Shown one piece after another: positions 14,622-59,093 of a stretch of DNA of 64,000 bases. The stretch lies in IMG/VR virus record IMGVR_UViG_3300027908_000021, positions 1 through 64,000 of that record. One strand, written 5' to 3'. Position 1 is the first letter of the stretch; every line of letters begins with the position of its first letter. This stretch comes from a virus. The notes below the pieces were generated by a model, which was given only the letters and a program-made list of their open reading frames with translations, did not search any database and was not told the origin of the DNA. Both the position numbers and the translations under genes were made by a program.

Positions 14622-17324
14622 TTAGATTATACTCTTAGCTAAAAGCTCGGGTATCTGCTTCGCTTGGTCGTCAATCTTGTCCGATGAGAACACGCCAACA
14701 AGCTTCTTTTGCCCCCAATTGTAACCGTGCGATACCTCAATTGACCAAGGCACTAACTCAGCGCCAGCAAAACGCACATCGGTCATGATTCGTGCTGCTA
14801 ACTCAATCGCTTTCGCTTCTTTTTCCTTGGGAATGCTGAATGTCGTCAAATCATCGTGAACCGCCAAGCTCGGATAAAACCACGGCATCTTGTTCTTATA
14901 CGAAAACTTGCCCGCTCGATACCACGCATCCATAGTTAAATCGCTGCCTCCCATCTGAATTCCATTATTACAAACTTGCGACTCTGACATAGGACCATGC
15001 CGCCGGGTTCCACCTATACCCTCCACATAGCCTAATTCTTTATACTTCCTCAAAGTCTCGATCTGCCAGACCTTTACTTGCGAGAATTCTTCCCAAAGTT
15101 CGTCGTCTAGTTTTTGCATTACCCTTGCAGGTATATCTAACGATCTGGCACGACTACTAACCGTTGCTCGATAAAAACCAGCAAATACAAATTTACTTTT
15201 TATCAAAGTACGGTATTGCTTGACGGCTTTCGCATCTAAACTACCGAAAAACTTGCGGCAGGAATCCGGCCACGCTTTAATTAACTTCTCAGCCCAAACC
15301 ATGTGAAAATCAAAGCCATCCCGCATGAACTTAATCAAGTTCGGGTCTTTCGACGCTACCGCAATTAATCGTGCCTCTTGTGCCCCAAAATCAGCAAAGA
15401 TAGCTACACAATCTTTTTCGGCTACATATTGTTTTTTTACCAACTCGCCGTCTCTAGGAATGTTCTGCAAAGCCGGATCAACAGAACCGACCCGCTTAGT
15501 TACCATCGCACAATGTTTATAACTCGTATGAGCCTTGCCGTCTGAAAATACATGAGTTTTAGGATGCTTGCTATCCATCCGTTCGAGATACGTACCACCG
15601 ATCTTTTTTACTTCCCTAACCTTTAGCAATGCTGCCGCTACCGGCTCATCGGCCATTTTCGCTAACGTTTCTTCCTTGTAATCAAAACCTTTTCTTGTCT
15701 GTCCTTCCGTCCTGCGTAGCATGTCCCTAAACAAAAGTGTGTTGCATTGTTTCGAGTCTTTATATTCGCCGTACTTTTTCTCAAAATCCCTGATCGCTTT
15801 TGTTTTATGTAATTCAACTATCGCATTCTGTATTCTCTTATCCGTCTGTATCCGTAACGTTTTATTGACTTGTTGACTGACAGGCACGCCGATAACTTGC
15901 CCTATCGCGATCGGTGGAACACGCTTCACCCACTGTAGGTACGCTTCCCATAAGCCGTCATCCTTCAATCGCTGCTTTTGCACGTCGTACAGCTTGTGGC
16001 AGTATTTAGTATCCCTGCCATCATAAGCCAGCACATCGTCAAGGTTAGTATCATCCAACCTGTTTCGATCAATCTCCCCATTGTCGTTCCAGCCCCACAT
16101 GTTTGCTATGCGAGCTTTCACGTCCTTCAAATCCAAGCCAAAGTTTAGTACACAACAGAAATTAAGCGAGATACCAAAACCTTCCTCTTTGCCGTGCGAC
16201 TTGGCCGACTGCCGTTCGTCGATACAGTACGCCATGCCCATCGTGTCATGCCAAAAACTCTCCCATGCCACCGAATCACCATACTCTTTTACCAACCACT
16301 CCAATTCAAACGGAGCGTTATGAGCAACTTTCGGCACTTTACTTATTAAGTAATTGTAGAAGATTTCTCGCAACTTGGCACGTTCCGCTTTCGTCCACGT
16401 TGCTTGCTTATGATCCAACGGAAAAGCGATTGTGTTATCTTTGGTGCCAATTGCGGCAGTTAGTATCTTTGCTCCATCTGCGTAGGGGCGATATCTATTG
16501 GTTTCCAAGTCGATGCCGTTGGTGCGTTCCTTGCTGATTTTGTCTAGAAAATTCCTAATCGCTTCGATACTACGCTTCTCAATCGTAATGCCTTTTAGCG
16601 TTGAAGCTAAATCGGGCGGTTCAATTACTGGTTTAGGTAAACCGTTATCTAAATCTTGAAATACTCTGGCAATGTCGAGTTCAAAATACCGTCGATGCTC
16701 GCTGGCGGGAACTTCTTGGTACTCGTTTGCACTTTCCATCCGTAAGATATGGCTAGGGTGTACTACTGGATAACACCAACAGGTATGACCCCCGATGCTA
16801 GCAGGAAACCGTCTACCCCTTACCGAGTTTATTCCGGCCTTGGCTACCGTTTCGCCCAGACACCACGCCGCAGAAATCGCTCCCACAGCCAATAGGACGC
16901 ACGGAGACGCATCTTTGACGGATTTTTGGACTTCCAGCCTGTAAGGCTCGGTCTCATTCCTTGTAGGCGTTCTGGAACCGTTTCGGAGAGGCGGGAGGGT
17001 ACGGCATACGTTATCAAAGCGATATTTGTAACCAGACGGAAGCAAATTTCGGATCATCTGTCCCGTAGGACCAACAAACGGGCAACCAGCCTCATCCTCT
17101 TTTTGACCGGGGCTTTCTCCACAAATGTAAACATCCGGTTTACTATTACCGGACGGTTGCATGTGTTTAGTTATCGCGTCGGGATTCATCTGCTCTACGG
17201 CGGCAAGCCCCAACGCCTGCAATCTATCGACGGACAAGCTTGATGCGTTTTGTCGGTTGCTCCCCCTCTTTATCTCCGTTCGCGTTTGAAAGAATCCTGT
17301 TTGAAATCCCATTAAACGCCTCAC
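14622..17324 (-). CDS. family-A DNA polymerase with an N-terminal family-4 UDG-like domain and a 3'-5' exonuclease
   Basis: UDG4 motifs VYICGESPGQKEDEAGCPFVGPTGQ and HPSHILR. Exo GIDLETN. Pol motif A ADFGAQEARLIA and motif C AVHDDL. The true start is uncertain (17324, 17312 or 17189). Confidence 0.85.
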   Translation of the reverse strand: MRRLMGFQTGFFQTRTEIKRGSNRQNASSLSVDRLQALGLAAVEQMNPDAITKHMQPSGNSKPDVYICGESPGQKEDEAGCPFVGPTGQMIRNLLPSGYKYRFDNVCRTLPPLRNGSRTPTRNETEPYRLEVQKSVKDASPCVLLAVGAISAAWCLGETVAKAGINSVRGRRFPASIGGHTCWCYPVVHPSHILRMESANEYQEVPASEHRRYFELDIARVFQDLDNGLPKPVIEPPDLASTLKGITIEKRSIEAIRNFLDKISKERTNGIDLETNRYRPYADGAKILTAAIGTKDNTIAFPLDHKQATWTKAERAKLREIFYNYLISKVPKVAHNAPFELEWLVKEYGDSVAWESFWHDTMGMAYCIDERQSAKSHGKEEGFGISLNFCCVLNFGLDLKDVKARIANMWGWNDNGEIDRNRLDDTNLDDVLAYDGRDTKYCHKLYDVQKQRLKDDGLWEAYLQWVKRVPPIAIGQVIGVPVSQQVNKTLRIQTDKRIQNAIVELHKTKAIRDFEKKYGEYKDSKQCNTLLFRDMLRRTEGQTRKGFDYKEETLAKMADEPVAAALLKVREVKKIGGTYLERMDSKHPKTHVFSDGKAHTSYKHCAMVTKRVGSVDPALQNIPRDGELVKKQYVAEKDCVAIFADFGAQEARLIAVASKDPNLIKFMRDGFDFHMVWAEKLIKAWPDSCRKFFGSLDAKAVKQYRTLIKSKFVFAGFYRATVSSRARSLDIPARVMQKLDDELWEEFSQVKVWQIETLRKYKELGYVEGIGGTRRHGPMSESQVCNNGIQMGGSDLTMDAWYRAGKFSYKNKMPWFYPSLAVHDDLTTFSIPKEKEAKAIELAARIMTDVRFAGAELVPWSIEVSHGYNWGQKKLVGVFSSDKIDDQAKQIPELLAKSII
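14626..14631 (-). promoter_or_regulatory. -10 hexamer TATAAT, 6 nt upstream of ATG 14619
   Basis: Minus strand reads gagTATAATctaactATG, inside the last codons of the polymerase gene. Confidence 0.3.
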
Positions 17325-26242: not shown

Positions 26243-26280
26243 CCGAACCTTTCTTTAGTAAAACAATGTAAACACTAAAG

Positions 26281-26352
26281 TGTGGCTGTCGGATGTCGAA
26301 CCGAATCTCTCGGGCTTCAACCGAGTGCTTTTACCAATTAAGCTACAGCCAC
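26281..26352 (-). tRNA. tRNA-Phe (anticodon GAA)
   Basis: Minus strand reads GTGGCTG-TA-GCTT..AAGC-A-CTCGG-TTGAAGC-CCGAG-..GGTTCGACATCC..-CAGCCAC-A. Perfect acceptor and anticodon stems, slightly irregular T arm, no encoded CCA. Confidence 0.75.
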
Positions 26353-43197: not shown

Positions 43198-43767
43198 TTG
43201 TATGGAGTTGTTACTAAACGAGTGGAGGATGAAATCGGCGGCAGATACTCTTTTACCACAAACCTAGCAGGGCACGGTTGTTACCTAAATCATGTCAATA
43301 AAACACTAACGCCGAGCGACAGCAATCAAACCATCGAAGACGTTATTCGACACCAACAGGCCGACTTACCGCCAACGCAAATTGAGGCGTGGTCGATTAA
43401 TCGTGTAGCTATAAATACGGCTTTGTTGCTGGCAAGTCATCCCACAATGCGAGTTAAGTCAGAGCGTCAACGGGAGTGGGCAAAGATTGCCAAGAAAAGC
43501 AATGACAGGCGGAAAGCTCAAGAGGCAAAAGAAAAGCTGCGGTTGCAACCTCAGTTAATCCGTTTCGTTAAAGAACCGTCCTTCTGTACGCCGAAAGATT
43601 CTGAGTTGGCGTTGCGTTCAGTTCGCCCGCACTGGCGTAGGGGCCATTGGCGTAGCCAACCGTGCGGACCTAAAAACGTTAACCGTAAGGTTATATTTAT
43701 TCAACGGTTACTCGTACATGGCGATTCAGCAGAGGGTACTAAAAACGAGATTCTTTACGTCGGTTGA
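43198..43767 (+). CDS. hypothetical protein (TTG start)
   Basis: 189-aa ORF with an AGAAAGG RBS 4 nt upstream. Contains RPHWRRGHWR. Confidence 0.4.
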   Translation: MYGVVTKRVEDEIGGRYSFTTNLAGHGCYLNHVNKTLTPSDSNQTIEDVIRHQQADLPPTQIEAWSINRVAINTALLLASHPTMRVKSERQREWAKIAKKSNDRRKAQEAKEKLRLQPQLIRFVKEPSFCTPKDSELALRSVRPHWRRGHWRSQPCGPKNVNRKVIFIQRLLVHGDSAEGTKNEILYVG

Positions 43768-46268: not shown

Positions 46269-46401
46269 TTGTCGTACTAGAACAAGATTTGAGCAAACGT
46301 AGCGGCAGGCGGTTTACTTGGAAACCGGGCTTGTTTCGCGGAGATTGGGACAAGGGACGTTGCTGGCGGATTTGGTGGGGTTTGTAAAGGAAAGGTTTAG
46401 T

Positions 46402-47526
46402 ATGCCGAAGATAATCTACGAACCAAAGAAATTCAGTACGGAAAAACTAAACGTTATCCGTACCGCCAATCGCATCATTGCGGATTATCAACAGCAAGGC
46501 TTCCGTCTAACAGTTCGCCAACTTTACTACCGCTTTGTTGCAGGCGACTTGTTTCCGCCGTCTTGGAAATATTCAAGCGTTGGCGGTAAGTGGGTACGCG
46601 ATGCGGAAAACGGCACCAACAACGCTCAGCCTAACTACAACAACCTTGGAGTAATTCTAGGCGATGCTCGCATGGCAGGTTTAGTCGATTGGGACGCGAT
46701 TGAGGATCGTACGCGAGAAATCACAACCGTACCTCACTGGGAAAACCCAGCGTCGATTATTGAAGCATGTGAACGTTCGTTCCGGCTTGATAAATGGAAC
46801 GATCAGCAGTTTCGTGTAGAATGCTGGGTAGAGAAAGATGCGCTTGAAGGAATCGTTAGTCAAGCCGCCAATGCTGAGGATGTGGCGGCATTTTCTTGTA
46901 GAGGTTACAGCTCTCTGTCGTCGTTATGGGAAGCTTCCCAACGGCTAGGCAAATATGTTAATGCTGGACAGAGGCCGATTATTTTGCACCTAGGCGACCA
47001 CGATCCAAGCGGTATCGACATGACGCGGGATATTAGTGAAAGGCTCAACACCTTTGTTGAAAGGGATTGGTATAACAAAAACGGCAAAGAATTGGGCAAT
47101 CAAACTACTATAGGTAAGATTTGGGAAAGCTTGGAAATTCATTTTCGGGAGCGGCACGGAGAAGTAGACGACGATTTAATACCCGGCGTTCAGGTAGGTT
47201 CCATTTCTGGTTACGTGCGAAAACCTGTTACCGTCATTCGCATTGCTTTAAATATGAATCAGATTGAAGAGTACAACCCGCCGCCCAATCCAGCAAAAGC
47301 AACCGACAGCCGTTACCAAAAGTACAAAGATTTGCATGGCGACGAAAGCTGGGAATTGGATGCTTTAGAACCTGCCGTACTTACTCAATTGGTTGTAGAC
47401 AATATCAATAAGTTTAGAAATACCGAAAAGTACTCAGCACGGCAAGCAGAAGAAACGGAGCACCGAGCGGATTTGAATAAAGCTGCCAGAGCATGGCCTA
47501 GGATTGCTGATTTTCTGTCAGAGTAA
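46402..47526 (+). CDS. Topo VI-A/Spo11/JetD-like protein (5Y-CAP-like plus Toprim)
   Basis: LTVRQLYYRFV (winged-helix Tyr motif), ECWVEKDALEGIV (Toprim Glu), ILHLGDHDPSGIDM (DxD). Start at ATG 46402 after GGAAAGGTTTAGT. Confidence 0.55.
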   Translation: MPKIIYEPKKFSTEKLNVIRTANRIIADYQQQGFRLTVRQLYYRFVAGDLFPPSWKYSSVGGKWVRDAENGTNNAQPNYNNLGVILGDARMAGLVDWDAIEDRTREITTVPHWENPASIIEACERSFRLDKWNDQQFRVECWVEKDALEGIVSQAANAEDVAAFSCRGYSSLSSLWEASQRLGKYVNAGQRPIILHLGDHDPSGIDMTRDISERLNTFVERDWYNKNGKELGNQTTIGKIWESLEIHFRERHGEVDDDLIPGVQVGSISGYVRKPVTVIRIALNMNQIEEYNPPPNPAKATDSRYQKYKDLHGDESWELDALEPAVLTQLVVDNINKFRNTEKYSARQAEETEHRADLNKAARAWPRIADFLSE

Positions 47527-48334
47527 ATCCAGCAAACGCTGCCGACCCTGTACAAGTATGTGAGTCGTTACCGAAACGGATGACGATTTTCGCATCGTTA
47601 GTAGCCGTAAACGGAATGGTTATTTTCGACCAATCGGACATACCTAGTTTATTCTCGCTCTTGGCATTACCTACACTGATACTGACGCCTTGCGGAGCGG
47701 ATGGAGTTTCAACATCTGTAACATCCTTGGTTGTCACCCATCCGGTTAGTACGTAGCGTTTGCCGATCTGTAGTTGTGCAATTTTAGTCAATCGAATATG
47801 ATCTGGCTTAGCTGTAGTCAGTACCGCAACCAAACCTTTGTCCGGCAAGTTATCGAACGAAAGGCAATGCTGGTTTTCCAGCCAGCTAACCAATGTCCAA
47901 GTACGAAAGTCGTCAATCGTTTTATCGACAGTCGGCGTAGGAACAAAATTAGTGAAATTGCTGACCACTCTAGCTAAAGCATCGTCCCACGTTTTGGTTG
48001 CTACTGCTACCGCACTATCGTAATCAATAGCTATCTTATGTTTAGCCTCAGCCGACCAGTACACGAAAGCATCGTCTTGACTTAAAACAGCTTTCGGTGG
48101 ATTAAGCTTGGCGTTTACATCGTTGTGCCGATCAACACCCCATCGAAAGTAAGTTGTCGGTGATGACAAGTCGGGAGGGTTTTGTTGAAAAAGAGATTTC
48201 CAACTGTTTTGGCACTCTCCGCACGGGATTCGGCTGTTGAATTGAGTCAGCCAGCTTAGCTCATCGTTCAGATTTACTACAAAGAACGGCCTTAGATGAA
48301 ATTCCGCCCACAAACTTGATCCGTCGAAAGACAT
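47498..48334 (-). CDS. Erv1/ALR-like sulfhydryl oxidase domain fused to a beta-rich C-terminal domain
   Basis: LWAEFHLRP, IPCGECQNSW (CxxC) and FRWGVDRHNDVNAKL (HNxVNxxL) in Erv order within the first ~95 aa. The C-terminal ~150 aa are beta-rich and CBM-like by eye. Confidence 0.55.
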   Translation of the reverse strand: MSFDGSSLWAEFHLRPFFVVNLNDELSWLTQFNSRIPCGECQNSWKSLFQQNPPDLSSPTTYFRWGVDRHNDVNAKLNPPKAVLSQDDAFVYWSAEAKHKIAIDYDSAVAVATKTWDDALARVVSNFTNFVPTPTVDKTIDDFRTWTLVSWLENQHCLSFDNLPDKGLVAVLTTAKPDHIRLTKIAQLQIGKRYVLTGWVTTKDVTDVETPSAPQGVSISVGNAKSENKLGMSDWSKITIPFTATNDAKIVIRFGNDSHTCTGSAAFAGFTLTENQQS

Positions 48335-48342
48335 TTAACGCC

Positions 48343-48348
48343 TATAAT
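48343..48348 (+). promoter_or_regulatory. -10 TATAAT, 6 nt upstream of ATG 48355 (candidate leaderless)
   Basis: cgccTATAATgataacATG. Confidence 0.35.
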
Positions 48349-48354
48349 GATAAC

Positions 48355-49035
48355 ATGATCGACTTAGCAGTCCTGTTCCTTTATCATTGTACAAACGACG
48401 CGACCTTACAGAACTTGGAGTTTGTCAAACGAAACAACCCTAATGTCCCAATCTTTTGTTTAGGCTATACATGCCGTGACTTACCGAACACCATCCTTGT
48501 AGCCGAAACAGGAAAATGGGCGATGGGAGACGCGAACTACGTTAAATTTGAAGCAGATTCCAAACCCTCAGCAGGCTGGTATCAAACCGACATGCCTGCC
48601 TACCAATTCTTTGAGTTAAAAGTATGCGAAGCAAAGCGTTACTTTTTGATGGAATGGGACACGTTGGTTAACTGCTCAATCCAAGAACGTTTTGCGGATG
48701 TGTGGGATGCCGATGTAGGAACGGCCACTATTGTACGACCCTACATGCCGTGGTGCTGGTGGCACGATTTAAAACACTACCCGCCTCATCTGCACTCATC
48801 AGCGTTGGGAGTCAAGCCCGTCGCTGGTGCAGTTTTATTAAGTAACCGCTGTTTATCAATGCTGGCAAACAGCCCCCGTCTAGTTGGCATGAGCGAAATG
48901 CGAATCGGAACTTTAGCTAATTACCACAAACTCGATATAAGAAAGTGTGATGATTTAGCAAAAACAGTGACTTGCGATCCTGCCAGATTCGATAATCAAA
49001 GAACGGTTTACCATTCGATCAAGACTTTGGTTTAG
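48355..49035 (+). CDS. hypothetical protein
   Basis: 226 aa from ATG 48355. No motif recognised. Confidence 0.4.
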   Translation: MIDLAVLFLYHCTNDATLQNLEFVKRNNPNVPIFCLGYTCRDLPNTILVAETGKWAMGDANYVKFEADSKPSAGWYQTDMPAYQFFELKVCEAKRYFLMEWDTLVNCSIQERFADVWDADVGTATIVRPYMPWCWWHDLKHYPPHLHSSALGVKPVAGAVLLSNRCLSMLANSPRLVGMSEMRIGTLANYHKLDIRKCDDLAKTVTCDPARFDNQRTVYHSIKTLV

Positions 49036-49781: not shown

Positions 49782-50051
49782 ATGTTAACCAACAATCAAC
49801 TTAAAGAACTCGACAAACTGATCTTCCCGAACGGAAGGTCTTACCTTTACGGTGCTCTTTCAGGTCAAGGACGAGTAAAGATTCGTCAAGCCGTCATGCT
49901 GTACTTGACAGGCGAAAAGCTGCCACAAGCAAAGTGCAGCCTCACAGCTTTAATGGATTTGTTGATAGAAAAGACGGAACCGTCTTTCGTTTGCCACTGC
50001 CTCAGCACGACCCGCTCTGCTGAGGCAGTTTTGTTTCTAGACGCGATTTAA
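49782..50051 (+). CDS. hypothetical protein
   Basis: 89-aa ORF with a GGAG RBS. Confidence 0.4.
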   Translation: MLTNNQLKELDKLIFPNGRSYLYGALSGQGRVKIRQAVMLYLTGEKLPQAKCSLTALMDLLIEKTEPSFVCHCLSTTRSAEAVLFLDAI

Positions 50052-51292
50052 GCCCCGATTCGTGTGTTGTCCTGTCCAAGTATAGGAAATGACGGAATCG
50101 CGTGTCTCGGTTCGTCCTGTGCGGTTTGTTGGTCACTCTGAGAAGGCATCGGAGCAAGACAATCAAGGCTGCACGGCAGGTCTAGCCTGCCCCATCCCGT
50201 ACCGACCCCTGCCACTATGTGGTCGAAATACTCTTGATACATCCACTTGACGCGATCTATCGACCACAGACTAATTGCCCGTTGCCGGATGTAATTGCGG
50301 TCAAGGTTATCTACTCGTTTCAGTGCTTCGACAAACTGGCGTAGGTTATTGCAGCGGAAACCTGTCTTGCCGTGCTCTACTGTTTCATTAAAATTTCCGA
50401 AATCACTGCTGACCACAGGCGAACCAGTCAATGCGGATTCTGCTGCAACACCCTCAAACGGGCCGTTATAAACCGTTGGAACGAGTACCGCCTTAGCCGC
50501 TCCCATTACTTTCGCCCGTTCTTCGTACCCCAAAACGCCGATGTACTTAACATGCGGTTTATCTATAGTAAAATCCTTGGTGATAATCTTAGTAGTGTGC
50601 TTTTCAGTAATCCCCTGTCCGGCAATCAGCAAAGGTATTCGTACTGCTTCTGTAGCCGCAACCGCTATCTCTACCCCCTTCATTTTAGTTAACCGCCCGA
50701 TGTACAGACAGTAGTTTTCTCTCTCGTGCGGATAAGGAAAGTCGTTTACATCGTAGTAATTTGGTATAACGGCGTCGTAAAAACTCATGCTGTTGTATTG
50801 ACGGTTCAGGCCCATAATTTGACTACGATGCGAGTAGCTTTCAAATACTCGAAACTGACTGAACACCCCCTCGTAGCCGATTCCGTACTCTACTACAAAG
50901 ACGTCCGGGCCAACGTTCTCCGCAATGTACTGCTGGCAGTTACCGCCGATGATGCAAATGAAATCCTTTGGCTGTTTCCGCTTGTGGATTTCAACTACAG
51001 CGTTTCGATTCGTCACCACCCAAATCGGCAACTCCGCTTTCCATTCGAGCGGGTACATGCTCTCTGTGGGATGCACGCCGTACAGTTGCTCTTGTTCTTT
51101 AGTAGAGATAATTTGTGCAAAATCGTCGCACTCTACCTCACTGCCTTCCGGTCCGTAGAAGTAAACTACGTGACCGAGAGACTTCATCATTTGACAAAAT
51201 AATCTCACTTTTTGCGTATAAGCACACGGCGAGTTCTTTTTGTTTGTAGCTAGATGAGGGAGAGAAATTACGTGGAACCTGTGAATGTTCAT
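50048..51292 (-). CDS. GT-B glycosyltransferase (GT1/GT4-like)
   Basis: IGRLTKMKGVEIAV and EGVAAESALTGSPVVSSDFGNFNETVEHGKTGF (the E-x7-E region of group-1 glycosyltransferases). Confidence 0.75.
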   Translation of the reverse strand: MNIHRFHVISLPHLATNKKNSPCAYTQKVRLFCQMMKSLGHVVYFYGPEGSEVECDDFAQIISTKEQEQLYGVHPTESMYPLEWKAELPIWVVTNRNAVVEIHKRKQPKDFICIIGGNCQQYIAENVGPDVFVVEYGIGYEGVFSQFRVFESYSHRSQIMGLNRQYNSMSFYDAVIPNYYDVNDFPYPHERENYCLYIGRLTKMKGVEIAVAATEAVRIPLLIAGQGITEKHTTKIITKDFTIDKPHVKYIGVLGYEERAKVMGAAKAVLVPTVYNGPFEGVAAESALTGSPVVSSDFGNFNETVEHGKTGFRCNNLRQFVEALKRVDNLDRNYIRQRAISLWSIDRVKWMYQEYFDHIVAGVGTGWGRLDLPCSLDCLAPMPSQSDQQTAQDEPRHAIPSFPILGQDNTRIGA

Positions 51293-51312: not shown

Positions 51313-53502
51313 CTATAAAGCACTGTTGATGGCAGTTATCTGACCGCCAGATACGACAATCGACCCTCCCAGAGACGCCGAAATAGGATAGGTGCCGTCC
51401 GGCAACGCCACGCCCCCCGCACCTGTAGCTCCTGTCGCTCCCGTTGCACCATCCATGCCATTAGTTCCGTTAGTTCCGTTCGTGCCGGGACTTCCTGTTG
51501 CTCCCGTTGCACCAGTAGCTCCAGTGGCACCAACCAAGCCGCTGATTACTGAAAAGTCGTAAGATTGATCGCAACCGCTCGTAGAGGGTGTAATAATTAC
51601 ACTGCCGTCTCCTGACGTTAGCGATAAATTTAACGCCAGTGTTGCCGGAGCTGTGCAGTCAGGACTAGATGTGCCCGTAACAACTAACCCTAACCCCGCA
51701 ATCACCCCACTACTTTTAAGTACCGGCGAACCTGTAGAACAAGCATAAAACTGTGTAGCAAAGTCACAGGGATTTATGTAAGTAAAAGCATTGATATTCA
51801 GTAGATTTACACTGCCTGTCGCTCCCGTACACGCATTGGGTGCCGACGTTTGACCTAGATCAAGAAAAGTGTAGTACTTGTTTACCGAGCCGCTAGGGGT
51901 TTTTGTAGTAATACCGCTGGTAGGCTCAGAAACGCTATTCGATTGTGCCGTTAAGTTGGTAGTTAGTACCGTATTATTGCAATACTTTGATCCTGTTGCC
52001 GTACCTGAAATATACTGGAATTCTACCGCTGGGAACGTGAATGCACCGCCCGACGCGGTTACCGTAGCCGTCTGCGTACAACCTGCACCGCTAAACGTTA
52101 CTGCCAATCCCGTACTAAAAACAATCGTACTGACTTGATTGGTATGCGTGCCGTCCGAAACTGTAGTTGCAAAGTCGCAAGGGTTAATGTAAACATTCGC
52201 GTTGAAGTCTAAGACGTTGTAAGTATTGGTATCGCCGGAACAGGCACAAGGATCGGTGATTTGCCGCTGAGATAGACCGATCCAAACGGGGTACTGGTTA
52301 AATGCTCCGGTACAGTTCGGACCTTTGTAAGTAATCGCACCGCCCGTACAACCTGTCGCTCCTGGCTCTTGGTAGCCTAAGTTCGCTACGGCAAGGTTAG
52401 TGGAGATGATCGTATTGTTACAATAATCCGCCTTAGTGGGAGAAGGGTTGTTGTAGTACTGAATGCCAGTTAGACCCGTCCAGTCAACTAAAGAGATTGG
52501 ATTACAAACCGCTCCTGTTCCGCCCGTTCTCGGTTGCTGAACACTGAAATGGTTATAGTTAAAATCAAGGGTTGTGGCCGGTGCAGGCGTTGCGTAGCTC
52601 GGCTTGGTCGCACCGGAACATGACGGAGGACCGGAACCTTGCAGACAGAACTGACCTATTAGCAACTGCGGTGCGACTTCGATTACGTAATGTAACGTGC
52701 CGTTGGTATCATATACCCCATGAACTAAAACCTCAGTTCCCGCAGCTACGCTATGCGTACCGGAGGTGAATTCGTTCAAGTTGGTGGCGACGATAATATA
52801 GGGCGTTGGACTCGGACAACTATTTGCAGAGCATACGTTAGGTATCGGCGTGCTGTCTGCAAACGAAATAGTGCTAGTAATGGACGATGGGGTTACGTCC
52901 TGAATCTGTATCCAGTACTGAGATCCCGTCAGATCAGCTTGTTCGCACGGGCCGGAAGTAACGACTGCTCCTGTCTTATTAACAGGAGCATGCAAGAAAG
53001 TAAATCTGACTGCTCCATTGTTCGGGTCAGACGTTTGGAACATCAATACAATAGTTCCAACCGCAGTAGGCTCAACAGGAGCACCGCCGCTGTTATCCCC
53101 TGAGTACATCGACAATGCCCAAAAGCATTGCGTAGCTCCACTAAACTCGGGATTGCCGTTGCACTCACCTAACGAACAACCGGACGCCGTGCCGGTTCTA
53201 GCTCCTGTAGCTGTTGTCCAATTAAACTCGGTTCTTAGTACCTGTTCCCACGAGTATTTAAACCTGCCCGTAGGATTGGAACCTTCTTGCAGTGGAGCAT
53301 AGCCAGTTATCCTTGCCCAAAACCAGTTAGTAGAGCCTTGAAAGGATATGAATGGGCCGTCTCTATCATCTATACTTAGAGGCGACGAAACATTGATCCG
53401 TAGTAACCACTCTAAGTCGGTTACCATTTGATTATAAATAGTACCGGGTAGTACGTATTTATTATCAGGGGAGACACGGGGGTAGGGTGTTTGATTAGGC
53501 AC
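51313..53502 (-). CDS. tail fibre / receptor-binding protein, Cys-rich with a C-terminal collagen-like G-X-Y tract
   Basis: 22 Cys. Duplicated motifs YINPCDFAT and YCNNT..TNL. GATGATGATGATGSPGTNGTNGTNGMDGATGATGATGAGG near the C-terminus. Confidence 0.65.
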   Translation of the reverse strand: MPNQTPYPRVSPDNKYVLPGTIYNQMVTDLEWLLRINVSSPLSIDDRDGPFISFQGSTNWFWARITGYAPLQEGSNPTGRFKYSWEQVLRTEFNWTTATGARTGTASGCSLGECNGNPEFSGATQCFWALSMYSGDNSGGAPVEPTAVGTIVLMFQTSDPNNGAVRFTFLHAPVNKTGAVVTSGPCEQADLTGSQYWIQIQDVTPSSITSTISFADSTPIPNVCSANSCPSPTPYIIVATNLNEFTSGTHSVAAGTEVLVHGVYDTNGTLHYVIEVAPQLLIGQFCLQGSGPPSCSGATKPSYATPAPATTLDFNYNHFSVQQPRTGGTGAVCNPISLVDWTGLTGIQYYNNPSPTKADYCNNTIISTNLAVANLGYQEPGATGCTGGAITYKGPNCTGAFNQYPVWIGLSQRQITDPCACSGDTNTYNVLDFNANVYINPCDFATTVSDGTHTNQVSTIVFSTGLAVTFSGAGCTQTATVTASGGAFTFPAVEFQYISGTATGSKYCNNTVLTTNLTAQSNSVSEPTSGITTKTPSGSVNKYYTFLDLGQTSAPNACTGATGSVNLLNINAFTYINPCDFATQFYACSTGSPVLKSSGVIAGLGLVVTGTSSPDCTAPATLALNLSLTSGDGSVIITPSTSGCDQSYDFSVISGLVGATGATGATGATGSPGTNGTNGTNGMDGATGATGATGAGGVALPDGTYPISASLGGSIVVSGGQITAINSAL

Positions 53503-53503
53503 G

Positions 53504-54403
53504 TCAAACGTTCACAGTCAGCAGAGAGTTCAAGTCGGCGGTAGAAAACAAGGTTTGTGTTCCAGCCTGATCAGTAAAAAAGTCATACCACCCGTTACCA
53601 ACTCCGTTAATAAAAGTACGCCACTGTTTGTTCCATCCTGCCGTAGTTCCAGCCATTTCTACACCATTCCATTCAAAATGAAGAATGATGTCCCAATTCA
53701 ACGCTCCGGCGGGTGTGAGTTTTCTACTGCTTTTCGGACCTTGAAACAGTACAGTACCAGCAGGAGCACCAAAGAAAGCCTCGGAATTGACTTTATTTAT
53801 TAGCGAAGTGAACAACTGAACGTTCAGTGACGGTCGATTAAATAGAGTTTGCGTAAAACGGATGGTAGGGAACTTAATTGGTACGTTTTGATCTAATTGT
53901 AGAGGCGTGCCGTCGTCCCAGTAGAACGAAGTGATGTTTTGAGTTAACGGAACAGTATTATTGCACCAGTCTAACTCTTGTTCTCCTATATTCGGCGTTT
54001 GTGCTTGCGTGTAGTCCGGTACTCCAAAGTTAACCGTCAATTCAGCCATCGGATAGATAGCTAAATCGCCTTCATCCTCTCCGCTCTGCATTAAAGATTG
54101 GTCGCGGGGAGCGTAAGGCTTCATATCTATGCTTTTGACGATCCACGCGGGGTTGTCCGGATAAGGAAAACCGTTTGAGTAAACGTAAGTTCCGGAAACA
54201 TCCAGCGTACCGCCAATCAGTGCCGTGGCGACTTGGTACCGATCTTCCCAAAGGCATTGGCACGTCCAGACGGCCCCTTGCTCCTCCGCTTTCCTGCTTA
54301 GTTTTTCAGTGCGATAAATATCCCATACTAAAGCTGTGTATCCAGCCCACTTGATTGAGATACGCTGATTGAGCGGAAGAGTTGCACTAGCGGGAAATGC
54401 CAT
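53504..54403 (-). CDS. virion structural protein (distal tail/baseplate position)
   Basis: 299-aa ORF between the tape-measure-like and fibre genes. Called by position only. Confidence 0.4.
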   Translation of the reverse strand: MAFPASATLPLNQRISIKWAGYTALVWDIYRTEKLSRKAEEQGAVWTCQCLWEDRYQVATALIGGTLDVSGTYVYSNGFPYPDNPAWIVKSIDMKPYAPRDQSLMQSGEDEGDLAIYPMAELTVNFGVPDYTQAQTPNIGEQELDWCNNTVPLTQNITSFYWDDGTPLQLDQNVPIKFPTIRFTQTLFNRPSLNVQLFTSLINKVNSEAFFGAPAGTVLFQGPKSSRKLTPAGALNWDIILHFEWNGVEMAGTTAGWNKQWRTFINGVGNGWYDFFTDQAGTQTLFSTADLNSLLTVNV

Positions 54404-57024
54404 TAGCCACCTACAGTATATAACGGAGCACTATCGACTATTTTCTTAGCGGCAGCGGTCAATGCCTTCGACGCCGCACCAAAAGCATCCAGCTTATCCA
54501 TCGCACCATGTAAGTCAGCAGCTTGCGGGCCGTTTCCGCCACCGAACAGACTACCCAAAGCACTGCCTACAGGGTTATCGAACAAGCCACCCAAACCGTG
54601 TTTCAGTTTATCGAAAGCATCATCTGCCTGTTTCTTTTTCTGCAACTCTTCCTGTAGATGTTTTTGCTCAATATTTAGTTGTGCTTGAGCATTTGCCCCG
54701 CCAGCAGTATTACCACCGAAAGTAGATTGTCCGAGTAAGTTAAACCAGACGCCGCGAGGATCATCGGCACTGCCAGCGGCACCACGAATAAAACTTTGTG
54801 TTTCGGCTACTTGACGGCGTAGAATAGCTGCTCGTTTGATAGGATCGTTGGCGTTTTCTTCCAACTCTTTTTGATGCTCATACTTCAAATGTTCCAGCGA
54901 TGCTCCACGGGTATCACCGCGATTACGCATTTCTAGTTCAGTAGACTCTTCGTTAATGTCCCTAATACCTAAATCGTGCTGATGCTCATATTGTCTCAGA
55001 GCGGATTGCTTTTGTTGCTCTAAAAGTCTGGCTGTAGCAGGGTCATTTCGAGCAACCTCCGCAATTCGTTGGTTGTACTGATCGGCTATGGCTTGCTGAC
55101 CAGCTTCGTAAGAACGGCCTTGCGTGCGTAGGCCCGTTTCTCTTGTTTTGCCGACGATTTCCCAATCCTTCATGTTATCCGCAAAACTTTGCATAGCCGC
55201 TCGGTCATCAATCAAACCTTGCCTAGATTCCTCCAAAGCCTTCTTTTCCGCCAACGCAGCGTTAGATACGTTAATGTCGATTAACTTATACTTATCCGCC
55301 TTGTCTTGAAGTAACTGTATTTGCTCATCCAACGAATGCTTGAATTCAATATTACCCGCCTCTGTAGTCTTGCCTTGAGCACGGAGATTAGAAACGTCGG
55401 AACGAAAAACCGTATTGGCGATTCGCTCATTAGCAGATCGATTTGCAAAACGTTCTTCCACATCCTCTTTTTGATTAAACTGCCGCAGATTAAGATCGTT
55501 TTCATCTTCCGTCGTTTTGTGCAATAGCTCCAGCCGCCGATACTTTGGAATATCTCCTTTATTAGCCGCTTCTAATTGCTCAGTTTCAATATCCCATAAT
55601 TTTCTAGTTTGAGAATTCTGTAAACTCTTTTCCCGAGCCGCTCTGCCTTGTCCAGACATGCTTAACTCCGTAACATCCATTCCCGCCCGAATACCTAAAA
55701 TCTCGTTTACGTGCTGCTGTTTGGCAACTTCCTCGTTATCAACTGCTTCCTCGGTCGCTCTACGGAAAGCTTCGTCATTGGCGTCTTTCTTAGCCTTACT
55801 CATAGCATCAACAGCACGCTGCCTTTCCGTAGCAGTCTGAGTACGAGAAAGTCTGCTTTGTTCGGTGAAATTACCTCCAAAGTTTTTATCCCACCATTCG
55901 TTATAAACAGACTCGGACCCCGAAAAAAGATTCCTTTGCCCGAACCAGCCTTGACCGACTCCCGCCTCAGATTCATCTAACTTATTTAATCGATCAACTT
56001 CTTCTCGTGATTCTTTTGACTGCTTCATTAACTCATCATTCCGTCTATCTTTATCCATTTGAGCCTGAAGCAGTGCTTTTTCCAAACCTCCTGATTGTCG
56101 GATTTTATTTTGATATGTAACATCACGTAACGAAGTCGAAGCTTTATCCTGCATTTCGGCAAAACGAATACCTGTCTCGGCTTGCTTCTCGATTATTTTA
56201 TTTTCAGCAGAAACTGGGCTTGTCAAAATCTCCCAACCGGCGGTTGCTATAGGTCCGATTACAGGAATCGCTTCAACACCGCGTTCCAAAGATTGCTGTA
56301 CTCTTTCTGCCGCGTGAACGTGCTCCATTGGCGTGTAGGCTACCGCTTCTGCGGATTGAGCTTCGTCGATACTACGAATCGCATTAGCAATTCGTCGCAT
56401 CATGTACATCCCCATTACTGCACGAGCCAAACGGGTGTTTTGCGGTTGATTCTGTCCTCCCCCACCGCCGCTGCCGGGCCAGTTTACCCCCGCCATTGCC
56501 ATTCCGTTTTGCGTATTAAAAAATTGACCGCTCCCCGGATCATAAGCCAAGGGAACGGCTTGTCCTGTTGCCGGATTCCAAGCCGCAAATGTTCCGCCAC
56601 CAACACCCCCACCTCCTCCACCAGCAGAAGTAATACTTGCAGAAATCGCATTACCAATCGTCTGACCGATAACCGAAGCGGAGTTTAGTAAAGATGTGCT
56701 GACCGCCTGTCCAATATCAAAACCAATTTGCGGAGCGTTGACTACATTTATTGAAATCCCTGCACCGCCCAAACCGCTCACCCATTGATTCCATTGCTGC
56801 TGTGCATTGGTCAAATCCAGTTTTACTTGAATTGGTTGCAGATTTGAAGTAAACTGATTCCACTGTTGCTGCATCAAATTGGCGTCAAATGCAGCAGACG
56901 GCCCCAACTTGGTTTGATTGACTTGATCGGCAAAGCTCTGAAAATCGGAGAGTGCTCGCCGCAACTGATCTTGCATTTGCTGCAAGTCAAGCGTTAGTTC
57001 TGAGGTTATTTGAATATCAGACAA
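54403..57024 (-). CDS. tape-measure-like / large coiled-coil virion protein
   Basis: 873 aa, Gln/Ala-rich coiled coils, poly-Gly patches (GGGGGVGGG, GSGGGGG). Preceded by two small overlapping chaperone-like ORFs. TTG start uncertain. Confidence 0.45.
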   Translation of the reverse strand: MSDIQITSELTLDLQQMQDQLRRALSDFQSFADQVNQTKLGPSAAFDANLMQQQWNQFTSNLQPIQVKLDLTNAQQQWNQWVSGLGGAGISINVVNAPQIGFDIGQAVSTSLLNSASVIGQTIGNAISASITSAGGGGGGVGGGTFAAWNPATGQAVPLAYDPGSGQFFNTQNGMAMAGVNWPGSGGGGGQNQPQNTRLARAVMGMYMMRRIANAIRSIDEAQSAEAVAYTPMEHVHAAERVQQSLERGVEAIPVIGPIATAGWEILTSPVSAENKIIEKQAETGIRFAEMQDKASTSLRDVTYQNKIRQSGGLEKALLQAQMDKDRRNDELMKQSKESREEVDRLNKLDESEAGVGQGWFGQRNLFSGSESVYNEWWDKNFGGNFTEQSRLSRTQTATERQRAVDAMSKAKKDANDEAFRRATEEAVDNEEVAKQQHVNEILGIRAGMDVTELSMSGQGRAAREKSLQNSQTRKLWDIETEQLEAANKGDIPKYRRLELLHKTTEDENDLNLRQFNQKEDVEERFANRSANERIANTVFRSDVSNLRAQGKTTEAGNIEFKHSLDEQIQLLQDKADKYKLIDINVSNAALAEKKALEESRQGLIDDRAAMQSFADNMKDWEIVGKTRETGLRTQGRSYEAGQQAIADQYNQRIAEVARNDPATARLLEQQKQSALRQYEHQHDLGIRDINEESTELEMRNRGDTRGASLEHLKYEHQKELEENANDPIKRAAILRRQVAETQSFIRGAAGSADDPRGVWFNLLGQSTFGGNTAGGANAQAQLNIEQKHLQEELQKKKQADDAFDKLKHGLGGLFDNPVGSALGSLFGGGNGPQAADLHGAMDKLDAFGAASKALTAAAKKIVDSAPLYTVGG

Positions 57025-57026
57025 GG

Positions 57027-57032
57027 TATAAT
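57027..57032 (+). promoter_or_regulatory. -10 TATAAT, 6 nt upstream of ATG 57039 (candidate leaderless)
   Basis: aggTATAATactcttATG. Confidence 0.3.
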
Positions 57033-57038
57033 ACTCTT

Positions 57039-57290
57039 ATGAGCAACGACGAATTACGAGAACAGATACTCAAAGCATGCAGTGACTTAGGATTATCCAC
57101 GTCGGACATAATCGATGCTGCAACTCTTAGCATGCGACTGTTCGACGTGATTAGGTTTGAAACGAGGTCGTATACTAAAGAAAGATCGTTACGCATAGGA
57201 AAGTCAGCGTTGTTTTTAGCCTTACAAGTCAGCGAATCTTTGTACCCCTCTACTTCAACGTCTCCACGTACAGAAGATAATCCGAAATAG
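57039..57290 (+). CDS. hypothetical protein
   Basis: 83 aa from ATG 57039. Its 3' end overlaps the convergent gene 57250..57600, so it is uncertain. Confidence 0.3.
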   Translation: MSNDELREQILKACSDLGLSTSDIIDAATLSMRLFDVIRFETRSYTKERSLRIGKSALFLALQVSESLYPSTSTSPRTEDNPK

Positions 57291-57600
57291 CTTTCTTTAG
57301 TTGATCTTTCGGTATCTGCAAATCAGATTGCATCTTACGCAAAGCACGAATCAACCAATCGTAGTCAACAAAGGGTAGTTGCTCTGGTCGTAGGTATTCT
57401 TGCAGGCAGACAGAATCCAGTAATTCCCGTTGCCGTAAAATTTCCGCACTGACCTCAAACTGCTTGCTTGGATCAGGCAAGTCATCCTCTTGCGAAAACT
57501 CTGCAATGATTTGATGGATCGCTAACTTGCGTACTTCGGACGGCGGTAGTTGTCGTTTCTCACGTAATTGCTTAAAGATTCGTTCCCAGTTGTAACTCAC
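57250..57600 (-). CDS. hypothetical protein (tail assembly chaperone position)
   Basis: 116-aa ORF with an ATGA overlap with the upstream ORF, immediately upstream of the tape-measure-like gene. Confidence 0.35.
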   Translation of the reverse strand: MSYNWERIFKQLREKRQLPPSEVRKLAIHQIIAEFSQEDDLPDPSKQFEVSAEILRQRELLDSVCLQEYLRPEQLPFVDYDWLIRALRKMQSDLQIPKDQLKKAISDYLLYVETLK

Positions 57601-58082
57601 GGGATTGCGGGAGACGCTCCCGCTTGTTCGTTTTTTGGTTCGTCTTTCTTCGGCCTCAAGATATGCGACATATCAAAACCAAAAGCTTCGGCCACCGTTG
57701 CCTGTACTTTCTCAAAATGGGTGCCGTCCAATGTCTTTAGTAAAGCTGTTGCCTTGTCCATCGTGAATGACGGATCGTTTTGACTAAGCAATGATTGCAG
57801 AAAAAAGGGAAGTTGAGACTTGGACGTAACTAAATGGAAGAAGCCGGGAAAGCCGAATTTGAGGCGTGATAGAACTACATCCGACGTCGCGTTCGCTATC
57901 AACCGATCCGCCACGTCAGAACGCAAGCCTATGCCCGCAGCGGCAGCTTTACGGAGATGGGTACGCTCGATCATTTCCTCTACCGCACCTAACGTAGCTA
58001 GTTCACATTTAGGAATGGGCGGGAAGTTAGTCGGCAGGTCAAGACTCGGACTTGCTGCAAGATTCGCTAGGCTTTCGGACAT
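57597..58082 (-). CDS. hypothetical protein (tail assembly chaperone position)
   Basis: 161-aa ORF with an AAAGGA RBS. Called by position only. Confidence 0.35.
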   Translation of the reverse strand: MSESLANLAASPSLDLPTNFPPIPKCELATLGAVEEMIERTHLRKAAAAGIGLRSDVADRLIANATSDVVLSRLKFGFPGFFHLVTSKSQLPFFLQSLLSQNDPSFTMDKATALLKTLDGTHFEKVQATVAEAFGFDMSHILRPKKDEPKNEQAGASPAIP

Positions 58083-58097
58083 GGAGATTCCTTTTAG

Positions 58098-59093
58098 CTA
58101 ATAAGATAAACCGCATTCTTGCCAAAACTGATACAACAACTTCTCGTCGCCTTCCACAAACCACATCGACTCATCCGCCACGCCAAAGGGATGGGTTATC
58201 TTTTCGGGTACTTTCTTTAACTGCCGGATCGTGTAGGCAATGCACGGCCCTTTATTCATACAGTCTTCCAACTGAGGAGCGTGTAACAACCCGTAAAACT
58301 CTACCAGTTCTGTTTTCGGCGGGAAGGGATAAAATTTCTGCATTACTTGCCGTTGCAAATAGACAGGCGTACTTACATCAAGCGATGCGATTGTCGGCAC
58401 CGACACTTCGTTCAATAGCATTTCAACGGGACGGTTGGCTGTCCGAGCCAACAAACCCTTTTTACGAAAGTAGCTGCCTCGCCTTTTTACGCCTTGCGGA
58501 GCGTTTGCGGGTATGGTGCGGATGTCAAAACTAACTCGCGTGCTCTCTGTATCATTTAGTACAGAACCGTGTATTTGCGAACAACAGAAAGAAAACAAAG
58601 CTGGCTTGTCCGTCACTATCGGTACAGCAGTTTGTTTAGCGGCGGTTTCAAACTTCTCCAAAGAGTAGCCGGACTTCAACCGCAAATGCAAGGACTTGGT
58701 AAAGTCATCGTCACAGATGTACAGACTGTTTGTATCAAAAGACGGTGTAAGTGCCAGCCAGTAATTCGTTTCGTGGGGACTATGACCAAAAAGCGTGTCT
58801 GAGTGAAAAGATACGCTAGTCGGCTGTCCCGGCAAGTGGATTCTTAGATTAGGGACGGCTTGGATGTAATCGTTATCACCAGAAATAGATTCGATCAGAT
58901 TATAAACGAGCGGCGATAGAACAGTTTTTAGCTGAAAGGATAAGGCGGAAACTGCCTTTTCATCCAACCAATGCAATCGACACAAAGGACAACCGCCCGT
59001 TACAGCTAGAGACGCGGCACAAATCGTTGCAACCGCGTCGTCAACTTCTGGATTTGAAATCTGCTTGAGCATCAGTCTCCTCTTGCCGTGCAT
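58098..59093 (-). CDS. Fe(II)/2-oxoglutarate dioxygenase, PhyH-like
   Basis: SFHSDTLFGH (HxD), NYWLALTP, IHGSVLNDTESTRVSFDIR (distal His plus Arg) in the order typical of the PhyH family. Confidence 0.5.
   Translation of the reverse strand: MHGKRRLMLKQISNPEVDDAVATICAASLAVTGGCPLCRLHWLDEKAVSALSFQLKTVLSPLVYNLIESISGDNDYIQAVPNLRIHLPGQPTSVSFHSDTLFGHSPHETNYWLALTPSFDTNSLYICDDDFTKSLHLRLKSGYSLEKFETAAKQTAVPIVTDKPALFSFCCSQIHGSVLNDTESTRVSFDIRTIPANAPQGVKRRGSYFRKKGLLARTANRPVEMLLNEVSVPTIASLDVSTPVYLQRQVMQKFYPFPPKTELVEFYGLLHAPQLEDCMNKGPCIAYTIRQLKKVPEKITHPFGVADESMWFVEGDEKLLYQFWQECGLSY

Follow-up and report, generated by a model that had tools for sequence, protein, structure and literature searches.

The window analysed here, a stretch of 64,000 nucleotides (nt) from the IMG/VR virus record IMGVR_UViG_3300027908_000021 (positions 1 to 64,000), is part of a tailed-phage genome of ~107 kb from soil and contains a minus-strand open reading frame (ORF) at 47498..48334, whose product very probably belongs to the Erv/ALR fold family of sulfhydryl oxidases according to its profile match, predicted fold and motifs. 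Related phages encode their Erv genes in tail modules, next to Cys-rich genes, and on these sequence and model data we regard it as reasonably probable that the oxidase of the window phage serves disulfide formation in its virion. An earlier note, made from the letters of this DNA alone, had proposed that the phage forms disulfides for its virion, a function that is supported in silico by the present analysis. The gene and its parts, in which the oxidase domain is fused to a domain resembling a carbohydrate-binding module (CBM), are the following:

47498..48334, minus strand: Erv-CBM fusion gene, 278 amino acids (aa), ATG start (ORF list and sequence; called in three public assemblies)
48035..48334, minus strand: predicted Erv/ALR sulfhydryl oxidase domain of the flavin adenine dinucleotide (FAD) type, residues 1-100, five-helix bundle (Pfam, PDB sequences, AlphaFold2, Foldseek)
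48296..48310, minus strand: W9-x3-H13 motif in helix 1, aligned to the W and H of African swine fever virus (ASFV) pB119L
48212..48223, minus strand: putative active site C38-G-E-C41 at the N-terminus of helix 3 (TGC GGA GAG TGC in the sequence)
48113..48127, minus strand: H70-N-D-V-N74 motif in helix 4, aligned to the HNxVN of Erv1, ALR and pB119L
47507..47908, minus strand: CBM4/9-like beta-sandwich, residues ~143-276, a proposed targeting module (profiles of relatives)

The three Erv/ALR landmarks that the earlier note had recognised are present in the proper order, namely LWAEFH at residues 8-13, IPCGEC at 36-41 and RHNDVNAKL at 69-77, a motif set far beyond a chance match. The family assignment was borne out by the Pfam profile Evr1_Alr (PF04777), which matches at 40.9 bits compared to a gathering cut-off of 27.6 (E = 2.8e-10). 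Moreover, phmmer against the PDB sequences returned only Erv-family oxidases below E = 0.2, with ASFV pB119L as the best match (3gwl, 7.6e-5), followed by yeast Erv1, ALR, Erv2 and Arabidopsis Erv1; C38xxC41 is aligned with the PCxxC of pB119L and Erv1. Presumably, as for the Erv family in general, the W-x3-H residues contribute to the flavin pocket. Among 149 aligned Erv domains the key positions are highly conserved (W9 99%, H13 98%, C38 95%, C41 99%, H70 100%, N71 95%, V73 91%, N74 91%), and the 44-sequence alignment A1 shows no variation at W9 and H13.

The predicted structure points in the same direction. An AlphaFold2 run from the single sequence gave a predicted local distance difference test (pLDDT) score of 29 and was replaced by a run with a 29-sequence alignment, in which the 10-residue block means of pLDDT amount to 80-95 over residues 11-100. 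This model shows helices at residues 3-17, 22-35, 39-51, 59-77 and 86-112, i.e. the four-helix bundle to be expected for an Erv oxidase together with a fifth helix, and it places the CxxC where the Erv family has it, at the beginning of helix 3. When the model was compared with the PDB by Foldseek, the top 22 matches were all Erv/ALR structures at a probability of 1.00, with target-normalised template modelling (TM) scores of 0.49-0.77 (21 of the 22 at least 0.60) and root-mean-square deviations of 2.2-3.1 Å over 84-101 aligned columns; the identity to the solved members is 22-26%.

Residue 1 of the Erv-CBM protein lies four residues ahead of helix 1. Because the chain begins at this helix, the protein has neither a signal peptide nor a membrane segment, and an N-terminal arm is missing as well; hence, it should remain in the cytoplasm. 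Shuttle disulfides on a flexible arm are present in Erv1, Erv2, ALR and R596, but they are not universal among these enzymes. The Erv-CBM protein contains no second CxxC or CxC that could represent such a shuttle; its remaining two Cys residues, C157 and C261, sit in the beta domain, and none is found between residues 42 and 156.

Independent support for a function in virion disulfide formation comes from related loci, of which one Logan contig (L004), 17 IMG/VR loci and three loci from a species-representative genome collection were retrieved. Wherever their surroundings could be read, the relatives belong to the tail module of a tailed phage and are located downstream of the tape measure. 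In 13 IMG/VR and Logan loci, the neighbours of the Erv gene mainly encode tape measure, tail chaperone, completion, terminator, tube and fibre proteins; a domain census of 111 neighbouring ORFs gave a similar picture, with minor tail proteins in addition, and the major capsid protein, terminase and endolysin also occur among the neighbours. For example, the order is tape measure, two ORFs, Erv, small ORF and tail fibre in L014, tape measure, three ORFs and Erv in L023, and tape measure, three ORFs, a 931-aa ORF and Erv in L028, while in the SU10-type phage L004 the Erv gene is surrounded by structural genes and lies downstream of the capsid gene. The ORF directly upstream of the Erv gene is located on the same strand and usually abuts it or overlaps with it by a few bases. 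These upstream partners are rich in Cys:

L004, 8922-10001: 359 aa, 28 Cys
L014, 8727-9674: 315 aa, 38 Cys
L019, 8735-9652: 305 aa, 41 Cys
L016, 8775-9800: 341 aa, 23 Cys
L017, 9085-9879: 264 aa, 19 Cys
L022, 8421-9854: 477 aa, 31 Cys
L023, 8655-9857: 400 aa, 17 Cys
L009: 203 aa, 10 Cys
L026: 345 aa, 14 Cys
L027: 284 aa, 12 Cys
L028, 4888-7683: 931 aa, 48 Cys

With one representative per lineage and a threshold of 4% Cys, the upstream ORF reached at least this value in 10 of the 11 independent lineages (4-12% Cys); among the remaining ORFs of these loci with a length of 150 aa or more, 3 of 142 did so (medians 5.2% vs 0.9%; Fisher p = 2e-12, Mann-Whitney p = 4e-7). The Cys-rich partners span 4-13% Cys. 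Three further lineages (L010, L011 and L013) have no separate upstream ORF by the rule of the script; in L011 and L013 the Cys-rich region is fused to the oxidase, and in L010 a 266-aa ORF with 16 Cys overlaps the start of the Erv-glycosyltransferase gene. The other structural proteins of the loci are Cys-poor, as exemplified by the portal, the major capsid protein and a 2,800-aa protein of L004 with 0-0.7% Cys, and the mean Cys content of whole loci is unremarkable (0.7-2.0%). The signal is confined to one neighbouring ORF.

By BLAST, the partners showed no detectable homology to each other or to the tail fibre of the window, except L014 with L019, and they match no Pfam or PHROG family, zinc and iron-sulphur families included; hence, they do not qualify as a single protein family. 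The GC content at their third codon positions follows the neighbouring genes in most loci, and the L004 partner is also predicted by a public gene caller. Several of the Cys-rich partners have a CC or CCC motif near their N-terminus. The cassette of a Cys-rich tail-module gene and an Erv oxidase gene appears to be undescribed. In the species-representative collection, matches were found only in L026, L027 and L028, which are all metagenome-assembled genomes of Phycisphaerae or Tepidisphaerales (Planctomycetota); in each of them the Erv gene is directly preceded by a Cys-rich ORF. The tape measure of L028 is confirmed by PHROG, and at the corresponding position L026 has a 922-aa ORF without family match. 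These loci give a hint at possible hosts of the family, though not necessarily at the host of the window phage, the GC content of which is 47%.

The statement of the earlier note that such an oxidase is not a standard function of tailed phages holds true. No PHROG family matches the Erv domain, and in 50,697 deposited phage records tblastn found only ml_435 of Mollivirus, a giant virus misfiled in the phage collection, when run with the query and with two family members that are more typical. A megablast of 24 kb of the window against deposited phages gave no match, and full-text searches of the literature for phage Erv oxidases found nothing. According to PMC13576161, dedicated thiol oxidoreductases are encoded by poxviruses and mimiviruses, and no dedicated machinery has been described in phages.

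Since a word-indexed homologue search recovered only a near-identical copy of the Erv-CBM protein, the relatives were collected by a full HMMER scan of 1.84 billion cluster representatives, which gave 918 matches at E <= 1e-3 and 143 at E <= 1e-10. The best 150 relatives are mostly 100-200 aa long, with 40-55% identity over the Erv domain. In most relatives the Erv domain is preceded by an extension of 40-100 aa, in many of them with the pattern C-x2-C ... C ... C-P-x-G (e.g. P0005, P0033, L009, L012 and L016), the CxxC of which may represent a shuttle disulfide or a zinc site (ribbon). Long C-terminal fusions are present in 12 relatives, and the examined ones correspond to GT8, GT9, Mannosyl_trans3, Stealth or MptE-like domains. 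Fusions of this glycosyltransferase (GT) type occur in P0028, P0033, P0061, P0089, P0112 and P0140 and among the loci in L008 (8657-10918), L010 (8714-10903) and L013 (9440-11266). More distant Erv genes were found in a fungus and on a contig of a nucleocytoplasmic large DNA virus (NCLDV), where the gene adjoins a glutaredoxin gene. An additional metagenome scan provided only short contigs and a membrane-anchored Erv protein (L031) that is probably not of the phage type; its results were not used.

In the window phage itself, the most plausible substrate candidate is a collagen-like tail fibre with 22 Cys residues. Its gene belongs to a minus-strand run, which we read as a tail module although only two of its genes have family matches. 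In the order of the run, a 324-aa ORF is followed by two small ORFs, an 873-aa ORF, a 299-aa ORF, the 729-aa fibre and the GT1 gene:

58098-59093, minus strand: 324-aa ORF with 9 Cys (2.8%), ahead of the two small ORFs (without match in Pfam or PHROG)
54403-57024, minus strand: 873-aa cysteine-free, tape-measure-like ORF (assigned from its position, size and composition; without match in Pfam or PHROG)
53504-54403, minus strand: 299-aa ORF in distal-tail position (assigned from its position, size and composition; without match in Pfam or PHROG)
51313..53502, minus strand: tail fibre, 729 aa, collagen-like G-X-Y run at residues 654-698 (collagen and tail-fibre PHROG matches)
50048..51292, minus strand: GT1-family glycosyltransferase directly downstream of the fibre gene (Glyco_trans_1_4 1.6e-15, phrog_3408 7e-67)

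The fibre contains exactly 22 Cys in 729 aa (3.0%), as counted in the earlier note, which is the highest number of any ORF in the window and the highest fraction among the unannotated ORFs of the tail run at 51313-59093. The CxxxxC motifs described before were likewise found, two in number (109/114 and 224/229). An internal duplication, in which YCNNT and INPCDFAT occur twice each, conserves some of the Cys residues. Compared with the PDB sequences, the fibre gave nothing informative beyond the collagen repeat. The 324-aa ORF could be a second client of the oxidase; that it is the tail tube gene is a guess from its position alone.

The second half of the oxidase had been described as a beta-rich, carbohydrate-binding-like domain, which stands at the level of profiles, whereas the window protein itself matches no Pfam CBM family. 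In the full HMMER scan, relatives of this half were found in P0002 (41% identity), P0083 and P0021; P0083 matches the Pfam family CBM_4_9 (PF02018) at 4e-7 and also CBM_4_9_1 ('BppA domain 1'), and P0021 has three tandem copies of the beta domain beside a transglutaminase-like core. The six-sequence profile A3 matches two lyases, in one case the CBM70 module of the pneumococcal hyaluronate lyase 4d0q (1e-5) and in the other the alginate lyase 4q8k (3.6e-4). The AlphaFold2 model shows beta strands in this half at low confidence (pLDDT mostly < 60). Among the best 150 relatives, only the near-identical P0001 combines Erv and CBM-like domains in this way, and no CBM is known as a fusion partner of an Erv domain. 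The CBM-like domain stands in place of the N-terminal arm of the relatives.

Glycan-type genes are dense among the tail genes of the window phage (50048-51292, 59160-59945, 60316-61125, 63619-64000 and beyond, L024 1283-6327), which suggests virion glycosylation. They encode the GT1 protein, a Glyco_transf_17-like protein, an FkbM methyltransferase and a SPASM-domain protein, and furthermore a 539-aa GT-like, a 3'-phosphoadenosine-5'-phosphosulfate (PAPS)-reductase-like and a 307-aa GT-A-like protein; further GT-like and PAPS-reductase-like genes are thus located just outside the window. Based on the GT fusions of the relatives, the GTs around the fibre gene and the CBM-like domain, we propose that this domain may recruit the oxidase to a glycosylated client.

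Taken together, the following mechanism can be envisaged. During infection, the Erv-CBM protein would act as a cytoplasmic, FAD-dependent oxidase that uses O2 to form disulfides de novo, at the C38-x-x-C41 site next to the flavin. These disulfides would be passed, directly or via a partner, to Cys-rich tail proteins folding in the reducing cytoplasm of the bacterium, with the collagen-like fibre as the most likely client in the window phage. The CBM-like domain would bring the oxidase to this client, possibly via glycans attached by the surrounding glycosyltransferases. There is precedent for both ends of this proposal, because yeast Erv1p in the cytoplasm of E. coli supplies oxidising equivalents for de novo disulfides (CyDisCo; PMC8601162) and disulfide-crosslinked siphovirus tails have been documented (PMC13576161, September 2026). 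A wider view, which we offer tentatively, is that a hyper-Cys-rich protein and an Erv oxidase could form a widespread two-gene tail module, a counterpart of the giant-virus pathway, to which the window phage would have added fibre glycosylation and a CBM-tethered oxidase as a kind of 'endoplasmic reticulum-like' kit.

The remaining genome agrees with the assignment to a tailed phage. The gene recurs in identical copies on ~107 kb contigs, which come from two soil metagenome assemblies, and on a JGI contig of 10.7 kb. The ends of the 106,997-bp public record map near 26.8 kb in the window, i.e. the record coordinates wrap, hence the genome should be complete and either circular or circularly permuted. 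Replication and partition genes of the window comprise RecA, an SbcCD-like pair, ParB and the UvrD, SNF2 and DnaB helicases (Pfam, PHROG). Further features of the window are:

14622-17324, minus strand: DNA polymerase A of 900 aa with N-terminal uracil-DNA-glycosylase-superfamily (UDG) and 3'-5' exonuclease domains in one ORF
26280-26352, minus strand: tRNA-Phe, beside the record-end point at ~26.8 kb
~43198-43767, plus strand: gene with an AcrVA2-like label (PF26125, precomputed Pfam), a candidate anti-CRISPR gene
46318-47526, plus strand: gene of the phrog_6247 family, annotated as 'DNA topoisomerase' (PHROG)
48316..49035, plus strand: divergent ORF of 170-239 aa depending on the start codon, in which the gene calls differ, with 9 Cys (3.8%) (ORF list)

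At their 3' ends, the Erv gene and the convergent phrog_6247 gene share 29 nt (47498-47526). The divergent ORF has no Pfam, PHROG or PDB match, and a scan for promoters and terminators performed no better than on shuffled sequence. Beyond the window, an insertion sequence is indicated in the same genome by a DDE_Tnp_1 transposase with a SWIM domain (L025 17686-18921).

Several observations weigh against the proposed function in virion disulfide formation. The earlier note placed the oxidase beside the fibre, and the distance of 3 kb is correct (2,979 nt between the start of the Erv gene and the stop codon of the fibre gene), but the fibre gene is not directly adjacent: the Erv gene is a minus-strand unit of its own between plus-strand genes and thus stands outside the adjacent-cassette arrangement of its relatives. 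The Cys content of the fibre falls below the 4% threshold of the comparative test and is modest compared to the partners of the relatives. The even Cys count had been used as an argument as well; among the 73 window ORFs of at least 80 aa, 31 have an even and 42 an odd number of Cys, so that no even bias exists and parity was dropped as evidence. It had also been inferred that the phage carries its own cytoplasmic disulfide-formation pathway; here, the linkage to Cys-rich tail genes in the relatives is in favour, but 'pathway' is as yet too strong a word, as no thioredoxin, glutaredoxin or protein disulfide isomerase (PDI)-like partner was detected by Pfam in ~40 window ORFs, and the precomputed Pfam labels of L001, L024 and L025, which cover part of the genome, include no thioredoxin or glutaredoxin relay of the kind expected for a pathway of the poxvirus E10R-A2.5L-G4L type. 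Hence, the link between oxidase and client is weaker in the window than in the relatives, because of the 3-kb gap, the separate transcription, the 3.0% Cys, the lack of a parity bias and the absence of a thioredoxin-fold partner from the annotated part of the genome.

On the side of the protein, a CxxC is present in the N-terminal extension of 44 of the 146 relatives, an extension that the Erv-CBM protein lacks, and its position 44 is Ser instead of the His that follows the CxxC as a family-conserved residue in the 149-domain alignment. Regarding the comparative data, the partner ORFs of the IMG/VR loci were obtained with a crude longest-ORF caller; the codon statistics are ambiguous for the L026 partner, and a partner ORF in L007 was rejected as a likely wrong-frame artefact. 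Finally, disulfides could form spontaneously after lysis instead.

None of the alternative explanations accounts for the tail-module linkage to Cys-rich ORFs as well as disulfide formation in virion proteins does. A first alternative is a virion-borne or released extracellular enzyme, in which the CBM-like domain binds a host polysaccharide while the Erv domain oxidises envelope thiols or produces H2O2 at adsorption. CBM4/9-like modules do occur in phage receptor-binding proteins, as indicated by the 'BppA domain 1' match of P0083, the nearest solved relative of the C-terminal domain is the CBM of a polysaccharide lyase, and the Erv gene is near the tail module. However, most relatives are proteins of 100-200 aa without CBM that are tightly coupled to an upstream Cys-rich ORF, the Erv-CBM protein has no recognisable tail-attachment domain, and the CBM assignment is at profile level with a low-confidence C-terminal model, which makes such an enzyme unlikely in our view.

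We assign a similarly low probability to a redox enzyme for host takeover or counter-defence. Instead of folding virion proteins, such an enzyme would reprogram the cell by generating H2O2 or by oxidising a defence protein, the thioredoxin of the host or thiols of the glutathione type. Erv enzymes are generally known to oxidise diverse thiols and to release H2O2, as also stated in PMC2936869. The Erv gene moreover stands alone between replication-type genes (phrog_6247, ParB) and the tail cluster, 4 kb from the AcrVA2-like gene. Such a function, however, leaves the recurrent placement in tail modules and the statistically strong Cys-rich linkage (p = 2e-12) unexplained.

Even less probable appears a role in a glycan or small-molecule pathway, in which the Erv domain works with the glycosyltransferases and the methyltransferase on a thiol-containing sugar or cofactor instead of protein cysteines. 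It could be deduced from the GT8, GT9, Mannosyl_trans3, Stealth and MptE-like fusions of relatives, including those in L008, L010 and L013, from the GT1, GT17-like, FkbM-methyltransferase and SPASM genes around the tail genes of the window, and from the CBM-like fusion. But no Erv enzyme is known to act on non-protein glycan substrates, GT fusions would be just as likely if the two activities took part in the maturation of one virion protein, and a 16-Cys ORF precedes the GT-Erv-GT gene of L010 as well. That the Erv fold is a catalytically dead module kept as scaffold or adaptor is highly improbable: despite the exchange of His44 (a position at which ALR has no His either), the change of the LGKP motif into LNPPK with a two-residue insertion and the lack of shuttle cysteines, the CxxC, W-x3-H and HNxVN motifs are all intact.

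The findings have several implications. Disulfide-crosslinked phage tails and virions are now seen by cryo-electron microscopy, yet their formation in a reducing cytoplasm is unexplained, and a phage Erv oxidase coupled to Cys-rich tail genes makes the formation of tail disulfides directly testable. The finding extends a hallmark of giant eukaryotic viruses to viruses of bacteria, which bears on the origin of viral Erv genes, and it identifies a new class of hyper-Cys-rich tail-module proteins. Furthermore, compact oxidases of ~95 residues that evolved for the bacterial cytoplasm might serve as alternatives to yeast Erv1p in the production of disulfide-rich proteins.

Compared to known systems, the C-terminal half resembles CBM4/9/22-type and CBM70 modules through the match of profile A3 to 4d0q and that of the relative P0083 to PF02018, but differs from them in that the window protein alone is below Pfam detection and that the module sits fused to an Erv domain. 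With the Erv/ALR oxidases of yeast (Erv1, Erv2), mammals (ALR) and Arabidopsis (Erv1), the phage protein shares the predicted helical bundle, the CxxC site and the W-x3-H and HNxVN motifs, while it lacks a shuttle disulfide as well as a C-terminal pair of structural Cys residues, carries the CBM-like fusion and belongs to a tailed phage with a bacterial host. The engineered CyDisCo system, which combines Erv1p with PDI, follows the same logic of an Erv oxidase in the bacterial cytoplasm for disulfide-rich clients; the phage system, in contrast, is a natural one, in which no isomerase was identified and the proposed client would be the product of a neighbouring gene. The closest counterparts are the oxidases of large DNA viruses (ASFV pB119L, vaccinia E10R, mimivirus R596 and baculovirus P33), with which the phage case has the virus-encoded Erv fold, the reducing cytoplasm and the linkage to virion morphogenesis in common. 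It differs from them by the bacterial host and by the linkage to Cys-rich tail-module genes instead of membrane or core proteins, and, whereas the NCLDV contig mentioned above has a glutaredoxin beside its Erv gene, no thioredoxin or glutaredoxin relay was found in the scanned phage ORFs. Among all of them, pB119L reached the highest target-normalised TM scores in the Foldseek comparison (0.74-0.77), and it is likewise a minimal domain without shuttle cysteines.

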